64,000 nt of DNA from Escherichia phage CJ20. Location: the sequence record MT533174.1; one strand, given 5' to 3'. Under the pieces are notes generated by a model that was not told the origin of the DNA, ran no database searches, and was given only the letters and a program-made list of their open reading frames with translations. Both the position numbers and the translations under genes were made by a program. This document shows positions 1,741 to 61,781 of the stretch, one piece after another; the first letter of the stretch is position 1; the number at the start of each line of letters is the position of its first letter.

Positions 1741-4455
1741 ATGCAAGAATTTTATTTAACTATCGAACAAATCGGTGACAACCTGCTCGAACGATATATT
1801 GACAAGAATGGTCATGAACGTGTTCGTGAAATCCCTTATGCTCCATGCTTGTTTATGCACGCCCGAGAAGACCAGGCTGCAAAGTATACAGACATCTATA
1901 ATAAAGGTTGTGTGAAAAAAGAATTCGATTCCATGCGTGATGCATCCCAGTGGATGAAGCGAATGAATGACATGGGTCTCGAAGCTATGGGTATGGACGA
2001 CTTTAAACTCGCATACTTGTCCGACCGTTACCCACACGAAATCAAATATGATTCAAGTAAAATCCGTGTTGCTAACTTCGATATCGAGGTGACATCTCCC
2101 GATGGGTTCCCCGAACCGTCTGAAGCACGTCACCCTATTGATGCCCTGACGCACTATGATTCGGTAGACGATAAATTCTATGTCTTTGACCTTTTGGACT
2201 CACCATACGCCACTGTGGAGCAATGGTCTATTGATATTGCTGCTAAGCTGCAGGAAGATGGTGGTGATGAAGTCCCGGAAGAAATCCTGGAAAAAATTGT
2301 TTATATGGCTTTCGATTCAGAAGAAGAAATGCTCCAGCAGTATTTGGTATTCTGGAACGAGAAAACTCCGGTTATGTTAACTGGTTGGAACATCGAGAAG
2401 TTTGATATTCCATATATCTACAACCGCCTTAAAAATGTATTTGGTGAAGCTACAGCAAAACGTCTGAGCCCGCATCGTCGTACAAAAGTTAAGGTCATTA
2501 ACAACGGCTTTGGTGAAGAACAAGAAATCATTCAGATTCTGGGTATCTCTGTTCTGGATTATCTGGACCTGTATAAAAAGTTCAGCTTCACAAACCAACC
2601 GTCTTATTCGTTGGATTATGTTGCGGAATCTGAACTGGGTGTTGGTAAACTCCCGTATGATGGCCCAATTTCTAAACTGCGCGAATCAAATCACCAGCGG
2701 TATATTTCTTATAACATCATCGACGTTTATCGTGTTGTGCAGATTGACCGTAAGCGGCAGTTTATTAACCTGAGTCAGTCAATGGGTTATTATGCAAAAA
2801 TGCAGATTCAGTCTGTATTCAGCCCAATCAAAACTTGGGATGCGATTATCTTTAACAGCCTGAAGACTCAAAACAAAGTCATTCCGGAAACCAAATCGCA
2901 TGTTCGTCAATCGTTCCCTGGTGCATTTGTTAAGGAACCTATTCCGAACGCATACAAATATGTAATGAGCTGTGACTTAACATCTCTGTATCCGAGCATC
3001 ATCCGACAGATTAACATCAGTCCAGAAACGATTGCCGGTTCATTTGCTCCAGCCCAGATGTATGAATACATCGCAGGAACTGCTGACCGTCCATCTGATA
3101 CATTTAGTTGTGCTCCAAATGGTATGATGTATTTTAAAGATGTTGCGGGTATTATTCCGACAGAAGTCACCAAGGTGTTTAATCAGCGTAAAGAACACAA
3201 AGGCTATATGCTTGCGGCTCAACGTAATGGTGAACTGATTAAGGAAGCTCTGCGTAATCCAGGAACTGGTACAACCGAGCCTGAAGTTGATTATCGTCAT
3301 GACTTTGATGACAATATGAAAACAACCTTGCATGGTCTGAATCAAACAGTCCTAAATGGTATGTTGTACAAAGCGCAGATGGAAGAAGTTGCAGGCATGA
3401 CCGCGCAGATTAACCGTAAACTACTTATCAACAGTTGTTATGGTGCTCTGGGTAATATCTGGTTCCGTTACTTTGACCTGCGAAATGCAACCGCGATTAC
3501 ATCTTTCGGACAACTTGCATTGCAGTGGATTGAGCGTAAAGTTAACGAATACTTCGATAGTGTTTGCGGGACAAGCGGCGAAACTTATGTGTTCTATGGC
3601 GATACTGACTCCATTTATATCCAGTGCGATAACCTGATTAAAAAGGTTGGTGGCGAATCTAAATTCCGCGATACAAACCACCTGGTTGACTTCATGGACA
3701 AGTTCGCGAAAGACCGTCTGGAACCGGCAATCGATAAAGCTTTCCGTGAGCTGGCTGAATACATGAACAACAAACAGCACCTTATGTTTATGGACCGTGA
3801 GGCGATTGCATGTCCTCCACTGGGTTCTAAGGGTGTTGGTGGGTTCTGGACGGCGAAGAAGCGTTATGCGTTGAACGTGTACGATATGGAAGGTACACGA
3901 TATGCTGTTCCGAAACTGAAAATCATGGGTCTGGAAACTCAAAAGTCGAGTACTCCAAAGGCATGTCAGAAAGCTCTGAAAGAATGTATCCGCCGTATGC
4001 TGCAAGAAGGTGAAGAATCTCTGCAGACATACTTCAAGGAATTCAATAAGGAATTTAATGAGCTTAACTACATGACCATCGCAGGTGTATCATCGGTTAA
4101 CAACATCCAGAAATATAATGAAGGCGGTTTCCCTGGATTTAAGTGTCCGGCCCATATCAAAGGTGTGCTTGCATATATGCGTGCAACTAAAGGTCTGAAG
4201 ACTGTTCCGCAAATCATGGAAGGGGAAAAGGTGTATGTACTTCCTCTTAAAGTCGGCAACCCGTTTGGTGAAACCGTGATTGCATGGCCATCTGGGATTG
4301 AACTCCCGATTGAAATCCGTGACCAGGTTCTGCAGTGGATGGATTACAGTGCCTTGTTCCAGAAGACTTTTGTTAAGCCATTAACAGGTTTCTCTGAAGC
4401 TGCAAAGGTTGATTACGAAAAGAAAGCAACTCTTTTTGATATGTTTGACTTTTAA
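1741..4455 (+). CDS. 43: DNA polymerase gp43 (family B)
   Basis: 904 aa; exonuclease motif FDIEV, polymerase motifs SLYPSII, YGDTDS; end-to-end similarity to remembered T4/RB69 gp43. Confidence 0.97.
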   Translation: MQEFYLTIEQIGDNLLERYIDKNGHERVREIPYAPCLFMHAREDQAAKYTDIYNKGCVKKEFDSMRDASQWMKRMNDMGLEAMGMDDFKLAYLSDRYPHEIKYDSSKIRVANFDIEVTSPDGFPEPSEARHPIDALTHYDSVDDKFYVFDLLDSPYATVEQWSIDIAAKLQEDGGDEVPEEILEKIVYMAFDSEEEMLQQYLVFWNEKTPVMLTGWNIEKFDIPYIYNRLKNVFGEATAKRLSPHRRTKVKVINNGFGEEQEIIQILGISVLDYLDLYKKFSFTNQPSYSLDYVAESELGVGKLPYDGPISKLRESNHQRYISYNIIDVYRVVQIDRKRQFINLSQSMGYYAKMQIQSVFSPIKTWDAIIFNSLKTQNKVIPETKSHVRQSFPGAFVKEPIPNAYKYVMSCDLTSLYPSIIRQINISPETIAGSFAPAQMYEYIAGTADRPSDTFSCAPNGMMYFKDVAGIIPTEVTKVFNQRKEHKGYMLAAQRNGELIKEALRNPGTGTTEPEVDYRHDFDDNMKTTLHGLNQTVLNGMLYKAQMEEVAGMTAQINRKLLINSCYGALGNIWFRYFDLRNATAITSFGQLALQWIERKVNEYFDSVCGTSGETYVFYGDTDSIYIQCDNLIKKVGGESKFRDTNHLVDFMDKFAKDRLEPAIDKAFRELAEYMNNKQHLMFMDREAIACPPLGSKGVGGFWTAKKRYALNVYDMEGTRYAVPKLKIMGLETQKSSTPKACQKALKECIRRMLQEGEESLQTYFKEFNKEFNELNYMTIAGVSSVNNIQKYNEGGFPGFKCPAHIKGVLAYMRATKGLKTVPQIMEGEKVYVLPLKVGNPFGETVIAWPSGIELPIEIRDQVLQWMDYSALFQKTFVKPLTGFSEAAKVDYEKKATLFDMFDF

Positions 4456-4457
4456 GT

Positions 4458-4487
4458 GTTTACAACGGCAATGGATTGCCGTATGAT
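4458..4487 (+). promoter_or_regulatory. Early sigma70-type promoter (GTTTACA -35, TATGAT -10) with a 6-bp hairpin in the spacer
   Basis: TTTACA 4459-4464, 17-bp spacer containing CGGCAA-TGGA-TTGCCG, TATGAT 4482-4487; upstream of imm. Confidence 0.5.
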
Positions 4488-4524
4488 TACCCCATCAACT
4501 GATGAATAACTTGAGGATATTAAA

Positions 4525-4767
4525 ATGGAAGCATTAATTGCGGGTACTGTTGTTCTTGGTGCAGGTTCTTTCTTCCTGGCTGCACTGGCATATTTTCTGC
4601 CGTGGATTATCGCGCTACTGCGTGGAACCAAAAGTAATTGCGGAATCTTCTTTGTTAACCTTCTGTTAGGTTGGACAATGGTTGGATGGTTTATTGCATT
4701 TATCTGGGCACTTGTTGCTGAACGTAAATCAAACGCACAAGTAATTATCATCAAGGAAGCAAAATGA
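4525..4767 (+). CDS. imm: Superinfection immunity protein Imm-like (two transmembrane helices)
   Basis: 80 aa with two hydrophobic helices; immediately downstream of gene 43 as in T4. Confidence 0.65.
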   Translation: MEALIAGTVVLGAGSFFLAALAYFLPWIIALLRGTKSNCGIFFVNLLLGWTMVGWFIAFIWALVAERKSNAQVIIIKEAK

Positions 4768-4907
4768 AGATAATTACAATTATTGTACTGATTGCATTTT
4801 TTAGTATGTCAATCTATTGGGCAATAATGACTCCACATATGATTCCAACTTTAATTTTGGGTTGGGTATTTTTGGGGCTCCAAGCTCGCTATGAATGTTT
4901 TAATTAG
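4764..4907 (+). CDS. Small membrane peptide (47 aa)
   Basis: ATGA overlap with imm stop; single hydrophobic helix; below ORF-track size cutoff. Confidence 0.35.
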   Translation: MKIITIIVLIAFFSMSIYWAIMTPHMIPTLILGWVFLGLQARYECFN

Positions 4908-4915
4908 GAAGCAAA

Positions 4916-5419
4916 ATGAAAAAGTTAGCTATCGCAGCTGTTATGCTGCTATCTGGTTGTGCTTACCAGGGTGATGTTGTTAATGCCAACGAGATTGGTA
5001 AAGCGCGAATTGCTGCAGACCGTCAGGTGCATAATGGTTCCTTTGATTTCAAAGGTGGTACTGGACTTATCTACAAACGCGACAACAATCAATGCGGAAA
5101 CAACTGCGCGAAATATGCTCAACAAGAAATTGAGTACAAACGCGAGCAAGCTGCGAAGCATGACGAAATCATTGCCAAGCTGGAAGCAGAAACCAAGCGA
5201 CAAAATGACCTGGATACTGTTAACCAGATTTCACAGGTCTGCATGTCATATATCAATATGCAGATAAACATCATGCGCGCAGAAGCTTATCAGGCAGCGG
5301 AGACGGGTTCTCCAAAAGCTAATGAGTACCGCGATATGTATCAGCGTTCTGCTCAAAACCGTCTGAGCTATATTAATAAATGTGTAGCTAAAGAGAAAGC
5401 ACGCCAAGGTATTAACTAA
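4916..5419 (+). CDS. Predicted lipoprotein, function unknown
   Basis: 167 aa; signal peptide ending in lipobox LLSGC; coiled-coil-like Lys/Glu/Gln-rich body; SD GGAAGCAAAATG. Confidence 0.6.
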   Translation: MKKLAIAAVMLLSGCAYQGDVVNANEIGKARIAADRQVHNGSFDFKGGTGLIYKRDNNQCGNNCAKYAQQEIEYKREQAAKHDEIIAKLEAETKRQNDLDTVNQISQVCMSYINMQINIMRAEAYQAAETGSPKANEYRDMYQRSAQNRLSYINKCVAKEKARQGIN

Positions 5420-5440
5420 ACAAACTGCGAGAAGAATATT

Positions 5441-5569
5441 ATGATTGGTATGTTATTGATTAGTCTATGGCTGTTGTCTGCATTTGGTATTGGGTTTATG
5501 TACTGGTGGGACAAACGCCAGACCCGTAAGATTGTTGAACGTGCAATTAATCGTGGATTCAATCGTTAA
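5441..5569 (+). CDS. Small membrane peptide (42 aa)
   Basis: ATG at 5441, hydrophobic N-terminus, basic C-terminus; short, no homology evidence. Confidence 0.3.
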   Translation: MIGMLLISLWLLSAFGIGFMYWWDKRQTRKIVERAINRGFNR

Positions 5570-5595
5570 TTGCTCTAAAAATACAGTGATATAAT
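5568..5595 (+). promoter_or_regulatory. Putative MotA-dependent middle promoter for uvsX
   Basis: MotA-box-like TTGCTCTAA (TGCTC 5571-5575) placed 19 bp before TATAAT 5590-5595. Confidence 0.4.
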
Positions 5596-5648
5596 TATCC
5601 TATCTTAAACCTGTGAGAAAAATATAATGGTGCCTATGGAAAAAATGA

Positions 5649-6827
5649 ATGTCTATTGCAGATTTGAAATCCCGTTTGATTAAAGCTTCTACATCCAAAA
5701 TGACCGCGACTCTTACCAAGTCCAAGTTCTTTAATGATAAAGATGTAGTTCGTACAAAAATCCCGATGCTGAACATTGCAATCAGCGGTGCACTAGATGG
5801 TGGCATGCAGTCAGGTTTGACTATTTTTGCTGGTCCGTCAAAACACTTTAAATCCAATATGGGTTTAACGATGGTCTCTGCATATATGAACAAATACCCC
5901 GATGCAATCTGTTTGTTCTATGATTCAGAATTTGGTATCACAGAAGCCTATCTTCGTGCAATGAAAGTTGACCCGGAGCGTGTTATCCACACACCAATCC
6001 AGTCGGTTGAACAATTGAAAGTTGATATGGTTAACCAGCTTGAAGCAATTGAGCGTGGTGAAAAAGTCATTATCTTTATTGACTCAATCGGTAACATGGC
6101 ATCGAAAAAAGAAACAGAAGATGCGATGAACGAAAAAGTCGTTGGCGATATGACTCGTGCTAAATCCCTGAAATCTCTGTTCCGTATTGTTACTCCATAT
6201 TTTAGCATCAAGGATATTCCTTGTGTCGCGGTTAACCATACAATCGAGACGATTGAGATGTACAGTAAAACCGTTATGACCGGCGGTACAGGTGTTATGT
6301 ATTCCGCGGACACCGTATTCATTATCGGCAAACGCCAGATTAAAGAAACTGGTAAAGAACTTGAAGGCTTCCAATTTGTTCTGAACGCCGAAAAATCTCG
6401 TATGGTCAAAGAGAAAAGTAAATTCTTCATTGATGTAAAATTCGATGGCGGTATTGACCCGTATTCTGGCCTGCTTGATATGGCAATGGAAATCGGATTT
6501 GTGGTGAAACCAAAAGTTGGTTGGTATAACCGTGAATATCTTGATGTTGAGACCGGTGAAATGGTCCGCGAAGAAAAATCATGGCGCGCAAAAGATACTA
6601 ACTGCACCGAATTCTGGGGCCCGCTGTTCAAACACGAACCTTTCCGTGATGCAATCAAACGCCATTACCAACTGGGTGCAATCGATAGCAATGCTGTTGT
6701 TGATGCCGAAGTTGATGCGCTTATTGCCTCCAAGGTTGAAAAATACACTGCTCCTGAAGGTAAGACAAAACCGTCCGCGGCAGATATCGAAAACGATTTA
6801 GATATGATGGAAGACCTTGATGAATGA
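5649..6827 (+). CDS. uvsX: UvsX RecA-like recombinase
   Basis: 392 aa; Walker A-like GPSKHFKS; strong similarity to remembered T4 UvsX. Confidence 0.95.
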   Translation: MSIADLKSRLIKASTSKMTATLTKSKFFNDKDVVRTKIPMLNIAISGALDGGMQSGLTIFAGPSKHFKSNMGLTMVSAYMNKYPDAICLFYDSEFGITEAYLRAMKVDPERVIHTPIQSVEQLKVDMVNQLEAIERGEKVIIFIDSIGNMASKKETEDAMNEKVVGDMTRAKSLKSLFRIVTPYFSIKDIPCVAVNHTIETIEMYSKTVMTGGTGVMYSADTVFIIGKRQIKETGKELEGFQFVLNAEKSRMVKEKSKFFIDVKFDGGIDPYSGLLDMAMEIGFVVKPKVGWYNREYLDVETGEMVREEKSWRAKDTNCTEFWGPLFKHEPFRDAIKRHYQLGAIDSNAVVDAEVDALIASKVEKYTAPEGKTKPSAADIENDLDMMEDLDE

Positions 6828-13083: not shown

Positions 13084-13602
13084 ATGGCTCATTTTAACGA
13101 GTGTTCCCAACTGATTGCTGGTGTTGATAAAGCTGAAGAAGCTTATGACAATGCGATTACAAAAGGTACTGACCCGCTGCAGATTATGCTTGATATGCAG
13201 AAATCATTGCAAGTTCGTCTGGCTACTGAAAAACCAGAATATAACTCACATCCAGATGAATTAGCTACTGCAGGTGATGTTGTTGCATGGCTTCGTAACC
13301 AGAAAGATTATGTCGACGACGAATTCCGTGAACTTCTGACTTCTCTCGGTGGTATGTCTAATGGCGAGAAAGCTGCATCAAGTTGTTGGAAGCCGTGGAA
13401 AGCACAACATGCTGAATTCCGTAATCGTCGTATTGATGAGTTGTCTCCTGAAGACCAGCTCGAAATTAAATTTGAGATGATTGATATCCTGCACTTTGTT
13501 CTGAATATGTTCCATGGTCTTGGTCTGTCAGCAGAAGAAATCTTTAAACTGTATTACCTGAAAAATGCCGAGAACTTTGCTCGTCAGGACCGAGGTTATT
13601 AA
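13084..13602 (+). CDS. 56: dCTPase/dUTPase gp56 (MazG-like)
   Basis: 172 aa; MAHFNEC start, DPLQ.MLDMQ, SPEDQLEIKFE..DI.HFVLNMF, ending NFARQDRGY, matching remembered T4 gp56. Confidence 0.85.
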   Translation: MAHFNECSQLIAGVDKAEEAYDNAITKGTDPLQIMLDMQKSLQVRLATEKPEYNSHPDELATAGDVVAWLRNQKDYVDDEFRELLTSLGGMSNGEKAASSCWKPWKAQHAEFRNRRIDELSPEDQLEIKFEMIDILHFVLNMFHGLGLSAEEIFKLYYLKNAENFARQDRGY

Positions 13603-15136: not shown

Positions 15137-15621
15137 AAGTATACGAATTAGAATTCTATGTCCGTGATTCGGCTGGGCAAACACGACTTTACGATGCTAC
15201 CGCATGTCTTATCATGGTTTACAATGGCATGGATTCGGTTACCGAATTGGAAACAAAATTAATGAACATGACGATGCCGGAAAACGTTATGCTGAAGGTA
15301 TTTCATAGAAAAAACGTTGATGTGGCTGAAGGGTGTCCGTTTACTGTTTCCGAAGCTCTACACATTAAAGGCTATCGTCACCCGGACCCATATGCAGAAG
15401 GTACTGCGGATATTTTCTATAAAGATAGAGATAAAATGGCCACTGAACGCCTTAAAGGTCGCACATATCTGATTTCCACTACCGACGACCTTGCTGAAGT
15501 TGAACGTCAGATTTGGAAGCACTTTGATATCGGCTTGCGCTTTACTTTAACAGAAGAAGCTATTCAAGATACTAAAATGCGTGCTCGTATGTATGGTTAC
15601 GGTCCGATTGGTGGTTACTAA
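15133..15621 (+). CDS. Hypothetical protein (162 aa)
   Basis: SD GAGGAAATCATTATG; lies in the T4 mrh/modA.x interval; not assigned. Confidence 0.5.
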
Positions 15622-15797
15622 TGGATTTATTTGAACTTTTTGAAGAGCCTAAAGCTCCCACAGAAGCCCGTGTGGACCTAGTTGACGAGCTTGATGCGAT
15701 TATACAGAAGCATGGTTTTAGTCTCCCGTTGGAAGTTCTACGCGACCTGGCCTCATATTACGACGACCCACCTCCATGGGCACCATGGAAACAGTAG
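15621..15797 (+). CDS. Hypothetical small protein (58 aa)
   Basis: TAATG overlap; acidic; below ORF-track cutoff. Confidence 0.35.
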   Translation: MDLFELFEEPKAPTEARVDLVDELDAIIQKHGFSLPLEVLRDLASYYDDPPPWAPWKQ

Positions 15798-15826
15798 TTT
15801 ACTTACTCCCCTCCTAATGACATAAT
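15797..15826 (+). promoter_or_regulatory. Early sigma70-type promoter
   Basis: GTTTAC 15797-15802, 18-bp spacer, CATAAT 15821-15826. Confidence 0.45.
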
Positions 15827-15853
15827 GGTCTTTCTTACAACAGAGAGGCCATT

Positions 15854-16414
15854 ATGAACATCATCAAATCTGATACCGAACCCAACCAGTTAAAATTTAG
15901 TGAAATGGAGATAGCTTCATTATTTGAATGCCGCACATCAAAGGTTGATAAGGCATTGCATTCAAACGTTAACTCAATCATCAAGTCAAGGTTATCTGTG
16001 CCTGATACAGTCTTGTATCGTGGGATTACCCAGCAAGAGATTGATTTGTTAGATGAAGCAAAAGAATCAATGCAACCTTTTGAATTTGGAAGGATAACCT
16101 CCTTTACAGAAGACTATGGTATTGCCAGGGATTTTGCCGCAATGGAATATGTGTCAAGGACTATCATCAGATTGAATCATACAAAAGCTTTTTGTTACCA
16201 TGATGCGATGCGCAAAATCGCGCTTGACGTTCCACTGGAATTCTTCAATACAGCTTCTGGTTCCGAACAGGCAGCAACGTTAAGACGTGAAGAATACATG
16301 GACATGATTGATTCTGAGCTTGAATGGTTTGTTCCAGTTGACCAGAAATTCGTGATAGTTGATGCTGGATTTGTTGGTGATTATTATGTTCTTGACTGTG
16401 TACAAGCACAATAA
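15854..16414 (+). CDS. ADP-ribosyltransferase, ModA/ModB family
   Basis: 186 aa; R-S-E type motifs LYRGIT, ITSFTED, ELEWFVPVD; first of a tandem pair; ModA versus ModB orthology not resolved. Confidence 0.7.
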   Translation: MNIIKSDTEPNQLKFSEMEIASLFECRTSKVDKALHSNVNSIIKSRLSVPDTVLYRGITQQEIDLLDEAKESMQPFEFGRITSFTEDYGIARDFAAMEYVSRTIIRLNHTKAFCYHDAMRKIALDVPLEFFNTASGSEQAATLRREEYMDMIDSELEWFVPVDQKFVIVDAGFVGDYYVLDCVQAQ

Positions 16415-29743: not shown

Positions 29744-30013
29744 ATGATTAAGCATTTCAATGTGTCAGACCGTGACATCAAAGTTTCAAATCTCCGGGGT
29801 CATCATTATGCAGGAATAGTTTACTGCGGTAAGCTCATCAAGCATGAAGGTGATGTTCACTATGGTTGGTTGGAATGTGATGAAGTAGTTGTTGGGGAAT
29901 TCCCTGACCCGGATTCTGATACATTTGATGCTAATGACCGTTTGTATTATGGCGAGCTTCACATCCGTGGAATCGTCGGTATCGATGAGGTCGTAAATGA
30001 TTCAGAAGAGTAA
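29744..30013 (+). CDS. Hypothetical protein (89 aa)
   Basis: ORF in series; acidic C-terminus. Confidence 0.4.
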   Translation: MIKHFNVSDRDIKVSNLRGHHYAGIVYCGKLIKHEGDVHYGWLECDEVVVGEFPDPDSDTFDANDRLYYGELHIRGIVGIDEVVNDSEE

Positions 30014-30590
30014 AACCTGGGAGCATCTGAAAAAGATGCCCTCCTTTCTTTATACAAAGGAAGACTTAAACCCCGAATCCCTGCAGAAGATTGTAGACAC
30101 GGCCAGGTATTCATTGCGTAAAGACCCAGGTCAGGACCGTGAGCAAGTCATGCAAAGATGTATGGTGGCCACAATGGCTGAACAAGCTATTGCTAAATGG
30201 ACTTCTGGTTTTTTATGTGGCGGCGACGAAGATTACGATAATCCTTATTCCTTTGCATTTGATGTAGTTTCGAAGGAAGGGGTAAGAATCGAAGTCAAGA
30301 CCCACCAGTCTGGTTCCAAATGGATATCCGTACACACTGGCCACCAGGGCGATTATCCGCATGGTTACGGGATTAATCTTGGTCCTTTTATGCAGCACAA
30401 GCTTGCTGACCTTATGATTATGCTCGATGTAAAAGAGACTCTCAAAGGTTATAGATTTAAACCAAAATTCCTTGCTGGGCCTGGTGCTTTCGTTCCTGAG
30501 TCTGGTCTTGTGCAGAAGTCACAAGGGGATGGCTGGTACCTCCGTTCTTGTTCAGAAGAAAAATTTCCCTATCACCGGTTTACAAGCTGA
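29997..30590 (+). CDS. denB: Endonuclease IV DenB
   Basis: 197 aa; LYTKE.LNP, MVATM.EQAIAKW, VKTHQSGSKWISVHTGHQG, NLGPF, GWYL motifs match remembered T4 endo IV; next to rIIB as in T4. Confidence 0.75.
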   Translation: MIQKSKTWEHLKKMPSFLYTKEDLNPESLQKIVDTARYSLRKDPGQDREQVMQRCMVATMAEQAIAKWTSGFLCGGDEDYDNPYSFAFDVVSKEGVRIEVKTHQSGSKWISVHTGHQGDYPHGYGINLGPFMQHKLADLMIMLDVKETLKGYRFKPKFLAGPGAFVPESGLVQKSQGDGWYLRSCSEEKFPYHRFTS

Positions 30591-54123: not shown

Positions 54124-55785
<1,662 letters not shown>

Positions 55786-59415: not shown

Positions 59416-59826
59416 ATGAAACAAATCGCTGATGAATACAGTTTTATAAAATACGCGGAGTTAGAGTTAGTCGATGGTAAAATCCCTATCCTTACTCTCG
59501 CAAACAAGAAAAATGTTATCTATGCTATTTCAGTTGATGATGAACTAGTGTATATTGGTAAGACGAACAACCTTAAGAAGCGTATCAACTATTACCGGAC
59601 TGCGATTAACCGAATCGACCAGACGAGTGATTCAAACAAATCCCGGATGATACATGAAGCTTTACAAGAAGGTAAAAAGGTGGTATTCTATGCACGACAA
59701 TGTTTCAATCTGTCAATGACCAATGAACTTGGCACAATGTCAGTCGAAACGATGTCTCTGGAAGAGCCGATGTTCATCAAGCTTTTTAATCCCCCGTGGA
59801 ATTACCAACATAAGGTGAAGAAATGA
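59416..59826 (+). CDS. denA: Endonuclease II DenA (GIY-YIG)
   Basis: 136 aa from ATG 59416; VIYAI...LVYIGKT..L.KRINYYR GIY-YIG core; matches remembered T4 DenA. Confidence 0.85.
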   Translation: MKQIADEYSFIKYAELELVDGKIPILTLANKKNVIYAISVDDELVYIGKTNNLKKRINYYRTAINRIDQTSDSNKSRMIHEALQEGKKVVFYARQCFNLSMTNELGTMSVETMSLEEPMFIKLFNPPWNYQHKVKK

Positions 59827-60959
59827 TTGAATTATATGATAACTTAATGAAGCTTTGCGCCGAATCCGATAAAGGTAAGTTTTTCTATACGGATTTTGTT
59901 TCTCCATTTGAAACTAAGTTCCGCATCTTCAGCTATAACTATGCTTCCTATAGTGATTGGCTTCTTGATGATGCACTGGAGTGTCGTGGCATTATGTTTG
60001 AAATGGATGACAATGGTCCAGTTCGCATTGCTGCCCGTCCTATGGAAAAATTCTTTAATCTGGGTGAGAACCCAATGACCATGGACCTTAACCTTGATGA
60101 AGTTGTCCTGGTTACTGCAAAAGCTGATGGTAGCTTGGTTTCTACTTATATGGACCAGACCAATATTGCTTTTAAATCCAAAGGGTCAATTAAAAGCTCC
60201 CAAGCTGCTGAATCTCTGCAGGTGTTTAAACAACCGCACCGTGAAGCGTTCAGGGCTCGTGTGACTGAAATCACTGAAGCTGGTTATACATGCAATATGG
60301 AATATGTTGCACCAACCAACCGCATTGTTTTGCCTTACCAGGAACGTGACCTGATTTTACTGAACGTTCGTCATAATGAAACTGGCGAATATATTCCTTA
60401 TCCTGAGCTGTTCAAAGATGCTGCACTCCGTCCTTTCCTGGTTGAAGCATATGACCTGGTGAGCATTGAGAATGTTCGTGGTATGAAAGAGATTGAAGGT
60501 TTCGTCTACGAGCTGGCAAGTGGTCAGAAGTTCAAGCTGAAAACAGAATGGTATTGTGCTCTGCACCATACTAAAGACTCCATTAATAATAATGAGCGCC
60601 TGTTTGAAGTTGTTGTTGCCGGCGGCGCAGATGATGTTATTGCCATGTTTACTGGTGATGATTATGCTCGCGAAAAAGTTAATGCCTTTACCATTGTACA
60701 TCTGGATTATCTGTCTAATACGCTGGGATTGTTGCTTGATGCCCAGAAACAGTTAGCAGGAAAAGACCGTCGCGAGTTTGCGATTAAAGGTCAAGAGTTG
60801 TGTAAACCATACCCGGGATTGTTCTCCGTATTAATGAACACATATCAACGCCCGCAGGAAACCGAACAAACGATTGCTCAAATCAATAAAGTTTTCCTTA
60901 AAAATCATAAACTTTACATTCCGTCGGACTACCAAGCGGAAGTAATCCTTCCTGAATAA
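59823..60959 (+). CDS. rnlA: RNA ligase 1 RnlA (gene 63)
   Basis: 378 aa; nucleotidyltransferase lysine motif TAKADGSLVSTY; N-terminus matches remembered T4 Rnl1. Confidence 0.9.
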   Translation: MIELYDNLMKLCAESDKGKFFYTDFVSPFETKFRIFSYNYASYSDWLLDDALECRGIMFEMDDNGPVRIAARPMEKFFNLGENPMTMDLNLDEVVLVTAKADGSLVSTYMDQTNIAFKSKGSIKSSQAAESLQVFKQPHREAFRARVTEITEAGYTCNMEYVAPTNRIVLPYQERDLILLNVRHNETGEYIPYPELFKDAALRPFLVEAYDLVSIENVRGMKEIEGFVYELASGQKFKLKTEWYCALHHTKDSINNNERLFEVVVAGGADDVIAMFTGDDYAREKVNAFTIVHLDYLSNTLGLLLDAQKQLAGKDRREFAIKGQELCKPYPGLFSVLMNTYQRPQETEQTIAQINKVFLKNHKLYIPSDYQAEVILPE

Positions 60960-61277: not shown

Positions 61278-61781
61278 ATGGATATGCAACTGATTTCAAA
61301 TGAAATGATTGTCAATGAATATGGTGACCGTCATGACGGAATTTATGTCTATAAAGGGACCAAGAAAATTGGTCTCATGACTGACTTGCGGAAAAAACTC
61401 GCCTCCAATAAAAAGTTGAAGGCGAAACAAAAAGAATATCGCGATAAAAAATCAGAAGAGCGGAAAGAAGCACTGCATGAATCTGTTCCTGAAATGGTTG
61501 ACTTCTTAAAGAACCATTTGGTTAAATATGATGCAGAAGTGTTCATCAATCAGACCCAACCTAATGTGCATATCAATGGATGTGTTTGTTATGTTGTGGT
61601 TGAACCCCTGACACTTCAACACCGCCTGGGAATTAAACACCCAGTGTTAACCCAGGATGATATGGCGGATGAAGTTGGTAATCAGTTCCGCATTTCAGCA
61701 TCTGACAGTACAAATCACATCCTCCTGAATGGTTTATCCCAGGATGATATTGTTGAGGTAATCATCAAGTTATGCAAATAA
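61278..61781 (+). CDS. alc: Alc, inhibitor of transcription on cytosine-containing DNA
   Basis: 167 aa from ATG 61278 (SD GAGGA); position between rnlA and pseT as in T4; sequence recalled as Alc-like. Confidence 0.8.
   Translation: MDMQLISNEMIVNEYGDRHDGIYVYKGTKKIGLMTDLRKKLASNKKLKAKQKEYRDKKSEERKEALHESVPEMVDFLKNHLVKYDAEVFINQTQPNVHINGCVCYVVVEPLTLQHRLGIKHPVLTQDDMADEVGNQFRISASDSTNHILLNGLSQDDIVEVIIKLCK

Follow-up and report, generated by a model that had tools for sequence, protein, structure and literature searches.

Introduction

In phage T4, the dCMP hydroxymethylase gene 42 and the beta-glucosyltransferase gene b-gt lie between imm and uvsX (uvsX-segA-b-gt-42-imm-imm.1-43 in the T4 record), and the dCTPase gp56 together with Alc, DenA, and DenB excludes and destroys DNA that carries unmodified cytosine. 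In JS98, a phage of the genus Dhakavirus, which was grouped with Gaprivervirus in a published pan-genome study (PMC8056088), the same interval is annotated with orf44 and orf43, followed by orf42 to orf38. These last five genes are homologues of the RB69 cassette that makes arabinosylated 5-hydroxycytosine, including a thymidylate synthase (TS)-like 5-hydroxy-dCMP synthase (PMC13326640). Phage PaMx74, in turn, was reported to replace all of its cytosine with 5-methylcytosine (5mC) (bioRxiv 10.1101/2024.12.05.627091). For Gaprivervirus, a puzzle was published in 2021 and again in 2025: these phages keep the genes that kill cytosine-containing DNA, and "no known enzyme" accounts for a non-canonical base (PMC8056088, PMC12115623). 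The authors of the comparative work gave no therapy advice for the genus because its DNA chemistry was unsettled. Here, we analyzed a 64,000-nucleotide stretch of Escherichia phage CJ20 (MT533174.1), referred to below as the window, in which gene 42 and b-gt are missing between imm and uvsX. We propose, as a prediction from sequence that we consider probable, that the cytosine-modifying enzyme is the product of td, labeled a thymidylate synthase, which carries Asp at position 177, and that 5mC replaces cytosine in the phage DNA. The absence itself is already in the literature, and what is new here is td as the candidate for the missing enzyme. We found no paper that ties a td protein with Asp177 to Gaprivervirus, in a search that did not extend to Kaliniene 2010 and 2011 or Hardy & Nalivaika 1992.

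By megablast, the window belongs to Gaprivervirus, a genus of SP18/VR7-like T4-type phages that infect Escherichia, Shigella, and Yersinia, with 91-98% identity to phages 212, P479, SP18, VR20, and TH40 and no identical record. It makes up about 37% of a genome of about 171 kb, with the remaining 107 kb outside, and the complete genomes of two congeners, VR7 (169,285 bp; HM563683) and TH40 (171,726 bp), were used alongside it. Read 'down' the T4 map, the window holds 44, 62, regA, 43, imm, uvsX, 41, 61, 56, 39, rIIA/rIIB, denB, 52, tail fibre genes, 32, frd, td, nrdA, nrdB, denA, rnlA, alc, and pseT, named from the VR7 annotation and from protein identities.

Results

To look for enzymes of the TS family, we searched all six-frame open reading frames (ORFs) of at least 30 aa with a hidden Markov model built from E. 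coli ThyA, six T4-like td proteins, PaMx74 thyA, T4 gp42, and JS98 orf39. In the window, td (54925-55785, + strand) was the only match (E 2e-131), and no other ORF reached E 1. The initial annotation had likewise named td as the sole TS-fold ORF of the window, but it took this as a sign of a missing enzyme and overlooked a substitution in that very td. The alignment of the 286-aa product (PF00303, E 2e-91) to the T4 TS crystal sequence 1TIS spans the entire protein and, at 64% identity, is unambiguous; against E. coli ThyA, there are two short gaps, both off the active-site motif. The motif reads PFNIASY in T4 and E. coli, and window td has Asp in place of its Asn, at position 177 in the E. 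coli ThyA numbering that we use for all td residues (GAT codon, 55483-55485, + strand). We checked 17 substrate, catalytic, and folate-site positions, including the twelve residues that lie within 6 Å of dUMP C5 (PMC13326640). The td proteins of the window and VR7 are the same as those of T4 and JS98 at R21, E58, W80, Y94, A142, L143, C146, H147, Q165, R166, S167, V168, D169, G173, H207, and Y209, and the only difference among the 17 positions is Asn177 to Asp.

Position 177 determines whether the enzyme is specific for dUMP or dCMP, and T4 gp42 has Asp179 there (PMC8670742, PMC13326640). The laboratory substitutions N177D in E. coli TS and N229D in L. casei TS turn the enzyme into a dCMP methylase that forms 5-methyl-dCMP (PMC8670742; PMC13326640, citing Liu & Santi 1992 and Hardy & Nalivaika 1992), and window td likewise combines this one change with a TS active site that is canonical elsewhere. 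Unlike in the laboratory mutants, the change in window td is natural, fixed in the genus, and under purifying selection, and it is accompanied by a neighboring A179G and about 35% overall divergence from T4 td. Position 143 tracks the product, with a hydrophobic Leu in enzymes that add a methyl group and Asp or Glu in those that add a hydroxymethyl group (PMC13326640), so the Leu143 kept in window td predicts a methyl product. Compared with a canonical TS, window td keeps the PF00303 fold, the catalytic Cys146, and the folate- and phosphate-binding residues, and departs at one feature, the Asn177 that selects dUMP and excludes dCMP. Its Asp177 and hydrophobic Leu143 are the pair expected of a phage dCMP C5-methyltransferase, whereas a T4-type dCMP hydroxymethylase would combine the TS fold and Asp177 with an acidic residue 143, which the window's one TS-fold ORF does not have. 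When seven natural TS homologues with Asp177 were co-expressed with T4 gp1, 5-methyl-dC appeared in DNA in vivo for five of them, and the Xp12 enzyme also produced it (bioRxiv 10.1101/2024.12.05.627091). Directly upstream of td, the stop codon of the dihydrofolate reductase (DHFR) gene frd (54332-54928, + strand; PF00186, E 4e-21) overlaps the td start (ATGA), an arrangement that suits an enzyme releasing dihydrofolate, as in methyl transfer, and not tetrahydrofolate, as in hydroxymethyl transfer. Together, these findings suggest that td encodes a dCMP C5-methyltransferase (5-methyl-dCMP synthase) and that the modifying enzyme is likely encoded inside the window itself, 50 kb from the imm-uvsX interval.

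We then surveyed the best 120 td homologues from a database of 5.8 billion proteins. Asp177 was present in all four Gaprivervirus clusters (86-99% identical to window td) and Asn in all of the other 116 homologues, which are at most 70% identical to window td and include those of Tequatrovirus, the Dhakavirus phage Bp7, and T4-like phages of Klebsiella and Salmonella. The td proteins of the window and VR7 are 86% identical, with a synonymous divergence (dS) of 0.72 and a ratio of nonsynonymous to synonymous divergence (dN/dS) of 0.16, and their Asp codons differ (GAT versus GAC). Because Asp177 has been kept by synonymous codons in two td alleles this far apart, it appears to be old and selected. 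The window allele is found at 99% identity in TH40 and Yersinia phage P8, and the SP18/VR7 allele in about 30 records. For gp56, there are likewise two deeply diverged alleles within the genus; the window and VR7 versions are 72% identical at dS 1.08. For the neighbors of td and gp56, dS is 0.14-0.35. The allele splits in td and gp56 suggest that alleles of nucleotide-metabolism genes have been exchanged within Gaprivervirus.

Outside the genus, Acinetobacter phages 133 and ZZ1 are reported to have no gp42 homologue, yet to keep DenB, Alc, and the dCTPase (PMC8056088). We found that their td proteins have Asp177 together with Leu143 (motifs KPFDIASY and MPFDIASY), and that td of Acinetobacter phages Acj9 and vB_AbaSI_3 has Asn177. 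In phage 133, the imm-uvsX and td regions together hold one TS-family ORF. The 'td' genes of phage 133 (20517-21464 of the stretch examined) and ZZ1 (15347-16279) are probably dCMP methylases under a wrong annotation, and if so, 5mC would be expected in the DNA of these phages as well. Both proteins also have Met165, as does T4 gp42. In a neighbor-joining tree, Gaprivervirus td branches within the T4-type td clade of enterobacterial phages, and the Asp forms from Acinetobacter phages branch among Asn forms from the same host genus. The PaMx74 enzyme, at 30% identity, lies far outside as an outgroup. This placement indicates that the change from Asn177 to Asp arose at least twice within genuine td lineages, each of them gp42-less.

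Both td and frd are outliers in divergence. JS98 and T4 are 83% identical in td and 79% in frd, while the window is only 64-67% identical to either; for most other genes compared (gp43, gp40, regA, imm, rnlA, denA, and nrdA), on the other hand, the window and JS98 are closer to each other than JS98 is to T4, uvsX being an exception. The frd-td module either evolved faster once its function had switched or was imported from a T4-like lineage that has not been sampled. We expected the deoxycytidylate deaminase Cd to be an outlier alongside td and frd, but it is 86% identical to T4 Cd and lends no support to co-adaptation across the pathway.

To determine whether gene 42 could lie elsewhere, we extended the searches to the complete congener genomes. 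Neither VR7 nor TH40 has a second TS-family ORF; each has one, td, and nothing else reaches E 1. In tblastn searches, T4 gp42, T4 b-gt, and JS98 orf38-42 gave no match in VR7 or TH40 at E <= 1e-3. Against the window, the best E values for T4 gp42 and b-gt were 0.12 and 0.39, respectively, and JS98 orf38-42, of which orf38 is a glycosyltransferase, had no matches. The D169N and L143E signature of 5-hydroxy-dCMP synthases, which JS98 orf39 carries, was found on no ORF of the window, VR7, or TH40. Genes 42, a-gt, and b-gt are missing from the VR7 annotation, although the T4 a-gt sequence was not itself used as a query. Two pan-genome studies report the same absence across Gaprivervirus (PMC8056088, PMC12115623). 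It is thus most likely, judging from these searches, that this phage has neither a gp42-type enzyme nor a DNA glycosyltransferase. The initial annotation had offered two possibilities, that the modification genes lie elsewhere in the genome or that cytosine is modified by a different route, and had proposed a search for a gene 42/TS-fold homologue and for glycosyl- or arabinosyltransferases. Run on VR7 and TH40, that search returned only td; with gp42, b-gt, and the arabinosyl cassette all missing from the congeners, the first possibility loses its footing, and the second is favored by the non-glycosylated modified cytosines reported for VR7.

During these searches, we also noted genes deposited as 'dCMP hydroxymethylase' or 'hypothetical' in Shigella phage JK45 (NC_054940; 3923-4639) and JS98 (3960-4658, positions in the stretches examined) that are about 25% identical to T4 gp42 and carry D169N and L143E. 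Deposited annotations of the RB69/JS98 type are out of date, as this signature marks 5-hydroxy-dCMP synthases (PMC13326640).

The genes that act against unmodified DNA are all present in the window on the + strand. They encode the gp56-type dCTP/dUTP pyrophosphohydrolase (13084-13602; phrog_173, E 3e-45; PF08761; dN/dS 0.18 versus VR7), endonuclease IV (denB, 29997-30590; phrog_1360, E 9e-80; dN/dS 0.06), endonuclease II (denA, 59416-59826; GIY-YIG domain, 72-77% identical to DenA of T4 and JS98; dN/dS 0.05), and Alc (61278-61781; PF17527, E 6.5e-49; dN/dS 0.13). With dN/dS at 0.05-0.18, these genes appear to be maintained and not relics. Alc is among the fastest-evolving proteins that we compared, with 48% identity between the window and JS98, 56% between the window and T4, and 49% between JS98 and T4, and the three genera carry three different cytosine chemistries, known or predicted. 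We considered this divergence as a sign that Alc had been retargeted, but it is uninformative since it is roughly equal among all three genera (48-56%).

In the imm-uvsX interval, the window differs from JS98 by a clean absence. On the left, gp43 (1741-4455) is followed by the superinfection immunity gene imm (4525-4767, + strand; PF14373 Imm_superinfect, E 1e-17), whose product is 69% identical to JS98 Imm. Next come a 47-aa peptide that is hydrophobic by hydropathy (4764-4907, + strand; phrog_3610, E 8e-27), which resembles VR7 'gp42.1' and is the counterpart of JS98 orf44 by a syntenic tblastx match, and a 167-aa lipoprotein without assigned function (4916-5419, + strand; phrog_1754, E 7e-47). 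The lipoprotein starts with MKKLAIAAVMLLSGC, a signal peptide with the lipobox LSGC and Cys15; it is 52% identical to JS98 orf43 and has dN/dS 0.04 versus VR7. A 42-aa peptide with a hydrophobic N-terminus (5441-5569, + strand) precedes the uvsX recombinase gene (5649-6827, + strand), whose product is 72-79% identical to UvsX of JS98 and T4. The alignment of the window with JS98 runs through imm, orf44, and orf43 and resumes at the 42-aa ORF and the region upstream of uvsX; precisely between them, at 5420-5440, the five-gene, 4.2-kb cassette orf42-orf38 is missing while both flanks align. On this alignment, the interval is an unoccupied cassette site between conserved small envelope proteins, and the three small envelope proteins are unrelated to DNA modification. 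The initial annotation had described the interval correctly: gene 42 and beta-gt are absent from their T4 position, with no significant tblastn match to either in the window, and only the 167-aa lipoprotein and the two membrane peptides of 47 and 42 aa are found there. The T4 order that it gave (uvsX, beta-gt, 42, imm, 43) agrees with the T4 record, which also has segA and imm.1, and the gp56, alc, denA, and denB genes that it listed are all borne out by Pfam and PHROG matches.

The 42-aa ORF is 100% conserved in VR7 and TH40, yet it is unannotated in VR7. Directly upstream of uvsX in JS98, an unannotated region encodes a weak homologue (52% over 23 aa; tblastx match at 47%). The SP18 stretch that we examined has an interval shorter by about 140 bp, and we did not find the ORF there.

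We also scanned ten larger VR7 ORFs with Pfam and PHROG: ORF006c, 134c, 135c, 136c, 147c, 148c, 149c, 239c, and 292c, which have no T4 namesake, and cd as a control. As candidate modifiers, these proved to be homing-endonuclease-like proteins of the Endo VII and AP2 types, a T5orf172 domain protein, proteins with domains of unknown function, and members of PHROGs of unknown function, with no methyltransferase or glycosyltransferase among them. VR7ORF147c (65136-65561 of VR7) was examined as a 5mC-specific deaminase and rejected, having no HAE motif, no PCxxC motif, and no Pfam deaminase match; its PHROG has no known function, and its annotation as similar to a cytidine/deoxycytidylate deaminase looks spurious. 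Like ORF147c, VR7 ORF134c (59937-60623; RB69 ORF132c-like) lies outside the window; it is a conserved 228-aa protein (phrog_1843) with no Pfam match, in which we saw by eye an H-x-D...H pattern (GYHHDD ... CHTWHTG) reminiscent of 2-oxoglutarate/Fe oxygenases.

Discussion

Our findings suggest a pathway in which gp56 would hydrolyze both dCTP and dCDP to dCMP, and td with Asp177 would convert dCMP to 5-methyl-dCMP by reductive methylation with methylenetetrahydrofolate, the dihydrofolate being recycled by the translationally coupled Frd. The dNMP kinase gp1 and the host NDP kinase would then raise 5-methyl-dCMP to 5-methyl-dCTP, which gp43 would incorporate so that 5mC stands in place of cytosine; Alc, DenA, and DenB would act on unmodified host DNA only, as in T4. 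Since gp56 removes dCTP, the replacement has to be made at the mononucleotide level, and td with Asp177 is the only such enzyme present. Of the companion enzymes, gp56 and frd are in the window, while cd (PF00383, E 8e-27, about 3 kb past the window end) and gene 1 were found in VR7. T4 gp1 phosphorylated 5-methyl-dCMP in the cited co-expression assays, and deamination of 5-methyl-dC nucleotides by a Cd-type enzyme is the route to dTMP proposed for Xp12-type phages (bioRxiv 10.1101/2024.12.05.627091). In Gaprivervirus, dTMP might come from such deamination by Cd (PF00383), from residual activity of td on dUMP, or from host ThyA plus Tk salvage.

Methylation at C5 blocks EcoRII and SalI but not Csp6I, and a C5-methyl group cannot be glucosylated. 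In a 2018 study (PMC6326788, Suppl. Fig. S4), VR7 DNA was digested with a restriction panel including these three enzymes and is described as carrying non-glycosylated 'modified cytosines', distinct from the hydroxymethylated T4147 mutant; the authors called VR5 and T4 DNA glycosylated, T4147 DNA hydroxymethylated, and VR7 DNA modified in its cytosines. The same study reports that VR7 is fully restricted by BREX, like phages with unglycosylated DNA (PMC6326788). The restriction results are consistent with 5mC in VR7 but are not proof of it.

Several alternatives have to be weighed against td as the modifying enzyme. A simple relocation would place glycosyltransferases and a complete gene 42, or its RB69-type counterpart, in the uncovered 107 kb, which might seem open given that the window is only about 37% of the genome and its best matches are 91-98% identical. 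However, the six-frame searches found td alone in VR7 and in TH40, which shares the window td allele at 99%, and the missing 42, a-gt, and b-gt in the VR7 annotation agree with the genus-wide absence in the two pan-genome studies, so we regard relocation as extremely improbable. It is also very unlikely that the DNA contains ordinary cytosine, with Asp177 neutral and Alc, DenB, DenA, and gp56 either drifted or distinguishing host and phage DNA by other means. Unmodified DNA does occur in T4-like phages that keep gp56 and DenA homologues (Krischvirus and Pseudotevenvirus), but the unmodified T4-like genera are without alc and denB (PMC12115623). Alc evolves fast enough between genera (48-56% identity) to fit a drifted protein; against this, Asn177 is invariant in the other 116 homologues while Asp is fixed in both old Gaprivervirus alleles and recurs in two other gp42-less lineages, and VR7 DNA is reported to have modified cytosines (PMC6326788).

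An unrecognized enzyme outside the TS family might instead make another cytosine derivative, as the 2021 and 2025 papers suggested, leaving Asp177 of td incidental or a means of supplying thymidylate through deamination of 5-methyl-dCMP. There are many small ORFs without assigned function, VR7 ORF134c, ORF136c, ORF149c, and ORF239c belong to PHROGs of unknown function, and the restriction data state just 'modified cytosines' (PMC6326788). We nevertheless think this unlikely, because no methyltransferase, glycosyltransferase, kinase, or transferase domain was detected by Pfam or PHROG among the ten larger VR7 ORFs, because removal of dCTP by gp56 requires synthesis at the mononucleotide level, which only td with Asp177 fits, and because the same substitution occurs in unrelated gp42-less phages without these small ORFs. 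Phages are known to oxidize 5mC with TET-type enzymes and to hypermodify bases in other ways after replication, and 5-methyl-dC made by td could be an intermediate that is oxidized or derivatized after replication into a hypermodified base. Uncharacterized ORFs are available for this, and further modification would ease the McrBC sensitivity predicted for plain 5mC. On the other hand, no oxygenase or transferase domain was detected in the ten ORFs, and VR7 has DNA classed as neither hydroxymethylated nor glycosylated and is fully restricted by BREX as unglycosylated phages are (PMC6326788). We give the intermediate a somewhat smaller chance still than the enzyme outside the TS family.

We return to td with Asp177 as the source of 5mC, against which a number of points weigh. 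Fully 5-methylated DNA is an expected target of McrBC, McrA, and Mrr, yet VR7 has no annotated arn, the anti-McrBC gene, and E. coli K-12 is the listed host of some congeners. In the co-expression assays, two of the seven natural homologues with Asp177 gave no 5-methyl-dC (bioRxiv 10.1101/2024.12.05.627091). His147 and Gln165 are still TS-like in Gaprivervirus td, while gp42, RB69-type gp48, PaMx74 thyA, and the Acinetobacter Asp forms are changed at one or both, so Gaprivervirus td may be dual-specific or only partly switched. The pathway presumes that Alc, DenB, and gp56 would spare 5mC substrates, its dTMP source is inferred only, Gaprivervirus Cd is an ordinary T4-like Cd (86% identical), and the evidence for cd and gene 1, both outside the window, comes from relatives only. 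Finally, none of the literature examined identifies the base chemically for a Gaprivervirus. Other T4 genes missing from the VR7 annotation are dam and the anaerobic ribonucleotide reductase genes nrdD and nrdG; its lack of arn would be notable if the DNA is 5-methylated.

The proposed system resembles each of the described ones in part. With Xp12 and PaMx74, Gaprivervirus shares Asp177 and Leu143, the predicted 5-methyl-dCMP product, and the logic of removing dCTP while supplying a 5-substituted dCTP. PaMx74 has a nucleotide pyrophosphohydrolase, thyA (Asp177, Leu143), a dCMP-deaminase-family protein, and a DHFR side by side; the same functions are found in Gaprivervirus as gp56, td (Asp177), Cd (from relatives), and Frd, plus gp1, but scattered as in T4 and not clustered, and with TS-like His147 and Gln165. 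Descent from the Xp12/PaMx74 clade is not what we found: window td and PaMx74 thyA share only about 30% identity, and since window td branches among Asn-type T4-like proteins, within the T4-type td clade, it looks like a convergent conversion of independent origin. Gaprivervirus also adds the T-even exclusion set of Alc, DenA, and DenB, which we did not look for in Xp12-type phages. With the hydroxymethylcytosine system of T4, it has in common gp56, Alc, DenA, and DenB (in the window), gp1 and Cd (in relatives), the genome architecture, and the principle of a TS-fold enzyme with Asp at the specificity position acting on dCMP. It differs from T4 in having no gp42 or glucosyltransferase and in a td that keeps Leu143 and the full hydride-transfer site and is coupled to DHFR, from which a methyl product is predicted, and the sugar is absent, VR7 DNA being reported as unglycosylated (PMC6326788). 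With JS98, the window has in common the flanks (orf44, orf43, the small ORF, and uvsX) of the exact imm-uvsX site where the RB69-type cassette sits in JS98; what differs is that the whole 4.2-kb cassette is gone from the window and no ORF carries D169N and L143E.

By naming an enzyme (td with Asp177) and a product (5-methyl-dC), this analysis makes the Gaprivervirus puzzle directly testable. If the prediction is true, about 30 deposited genomes, along with Acinetobacter phages 133 and ZZ1, probably carry a wrong 'thymidylate synthase' label, and their genes would provide dCMP methylases that evolved naturally, are compatible with T4, and could serve to make fully 5mC DNA. The Gaprivervirus phages, which are candidates for therapy, would then be open to attack by McrBC, Mrr, BREX, and other type IV systems that depend on 5mC while resisting many type II enzymes. 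We lean, by a narrower measure than for the enzyme itself, toward the wider view that the whole genus has abandoned hydroxymethyl- and hydroxycytosine and switched to fully 5mC DNA through one td residue, that Acinetobacter T4-like phages have done so independently, that one TS-fold enzyme feeds both the C and the T positions, and that 5mC would add a third natural solution to those that work within the T4 exclusion toolkit (Alc, DenB, and gp56). Should the td prediction hold, T4-type phages would swap their cytosine chemistry easily, through one residue in a resident enzyme and the loss of a cassette.

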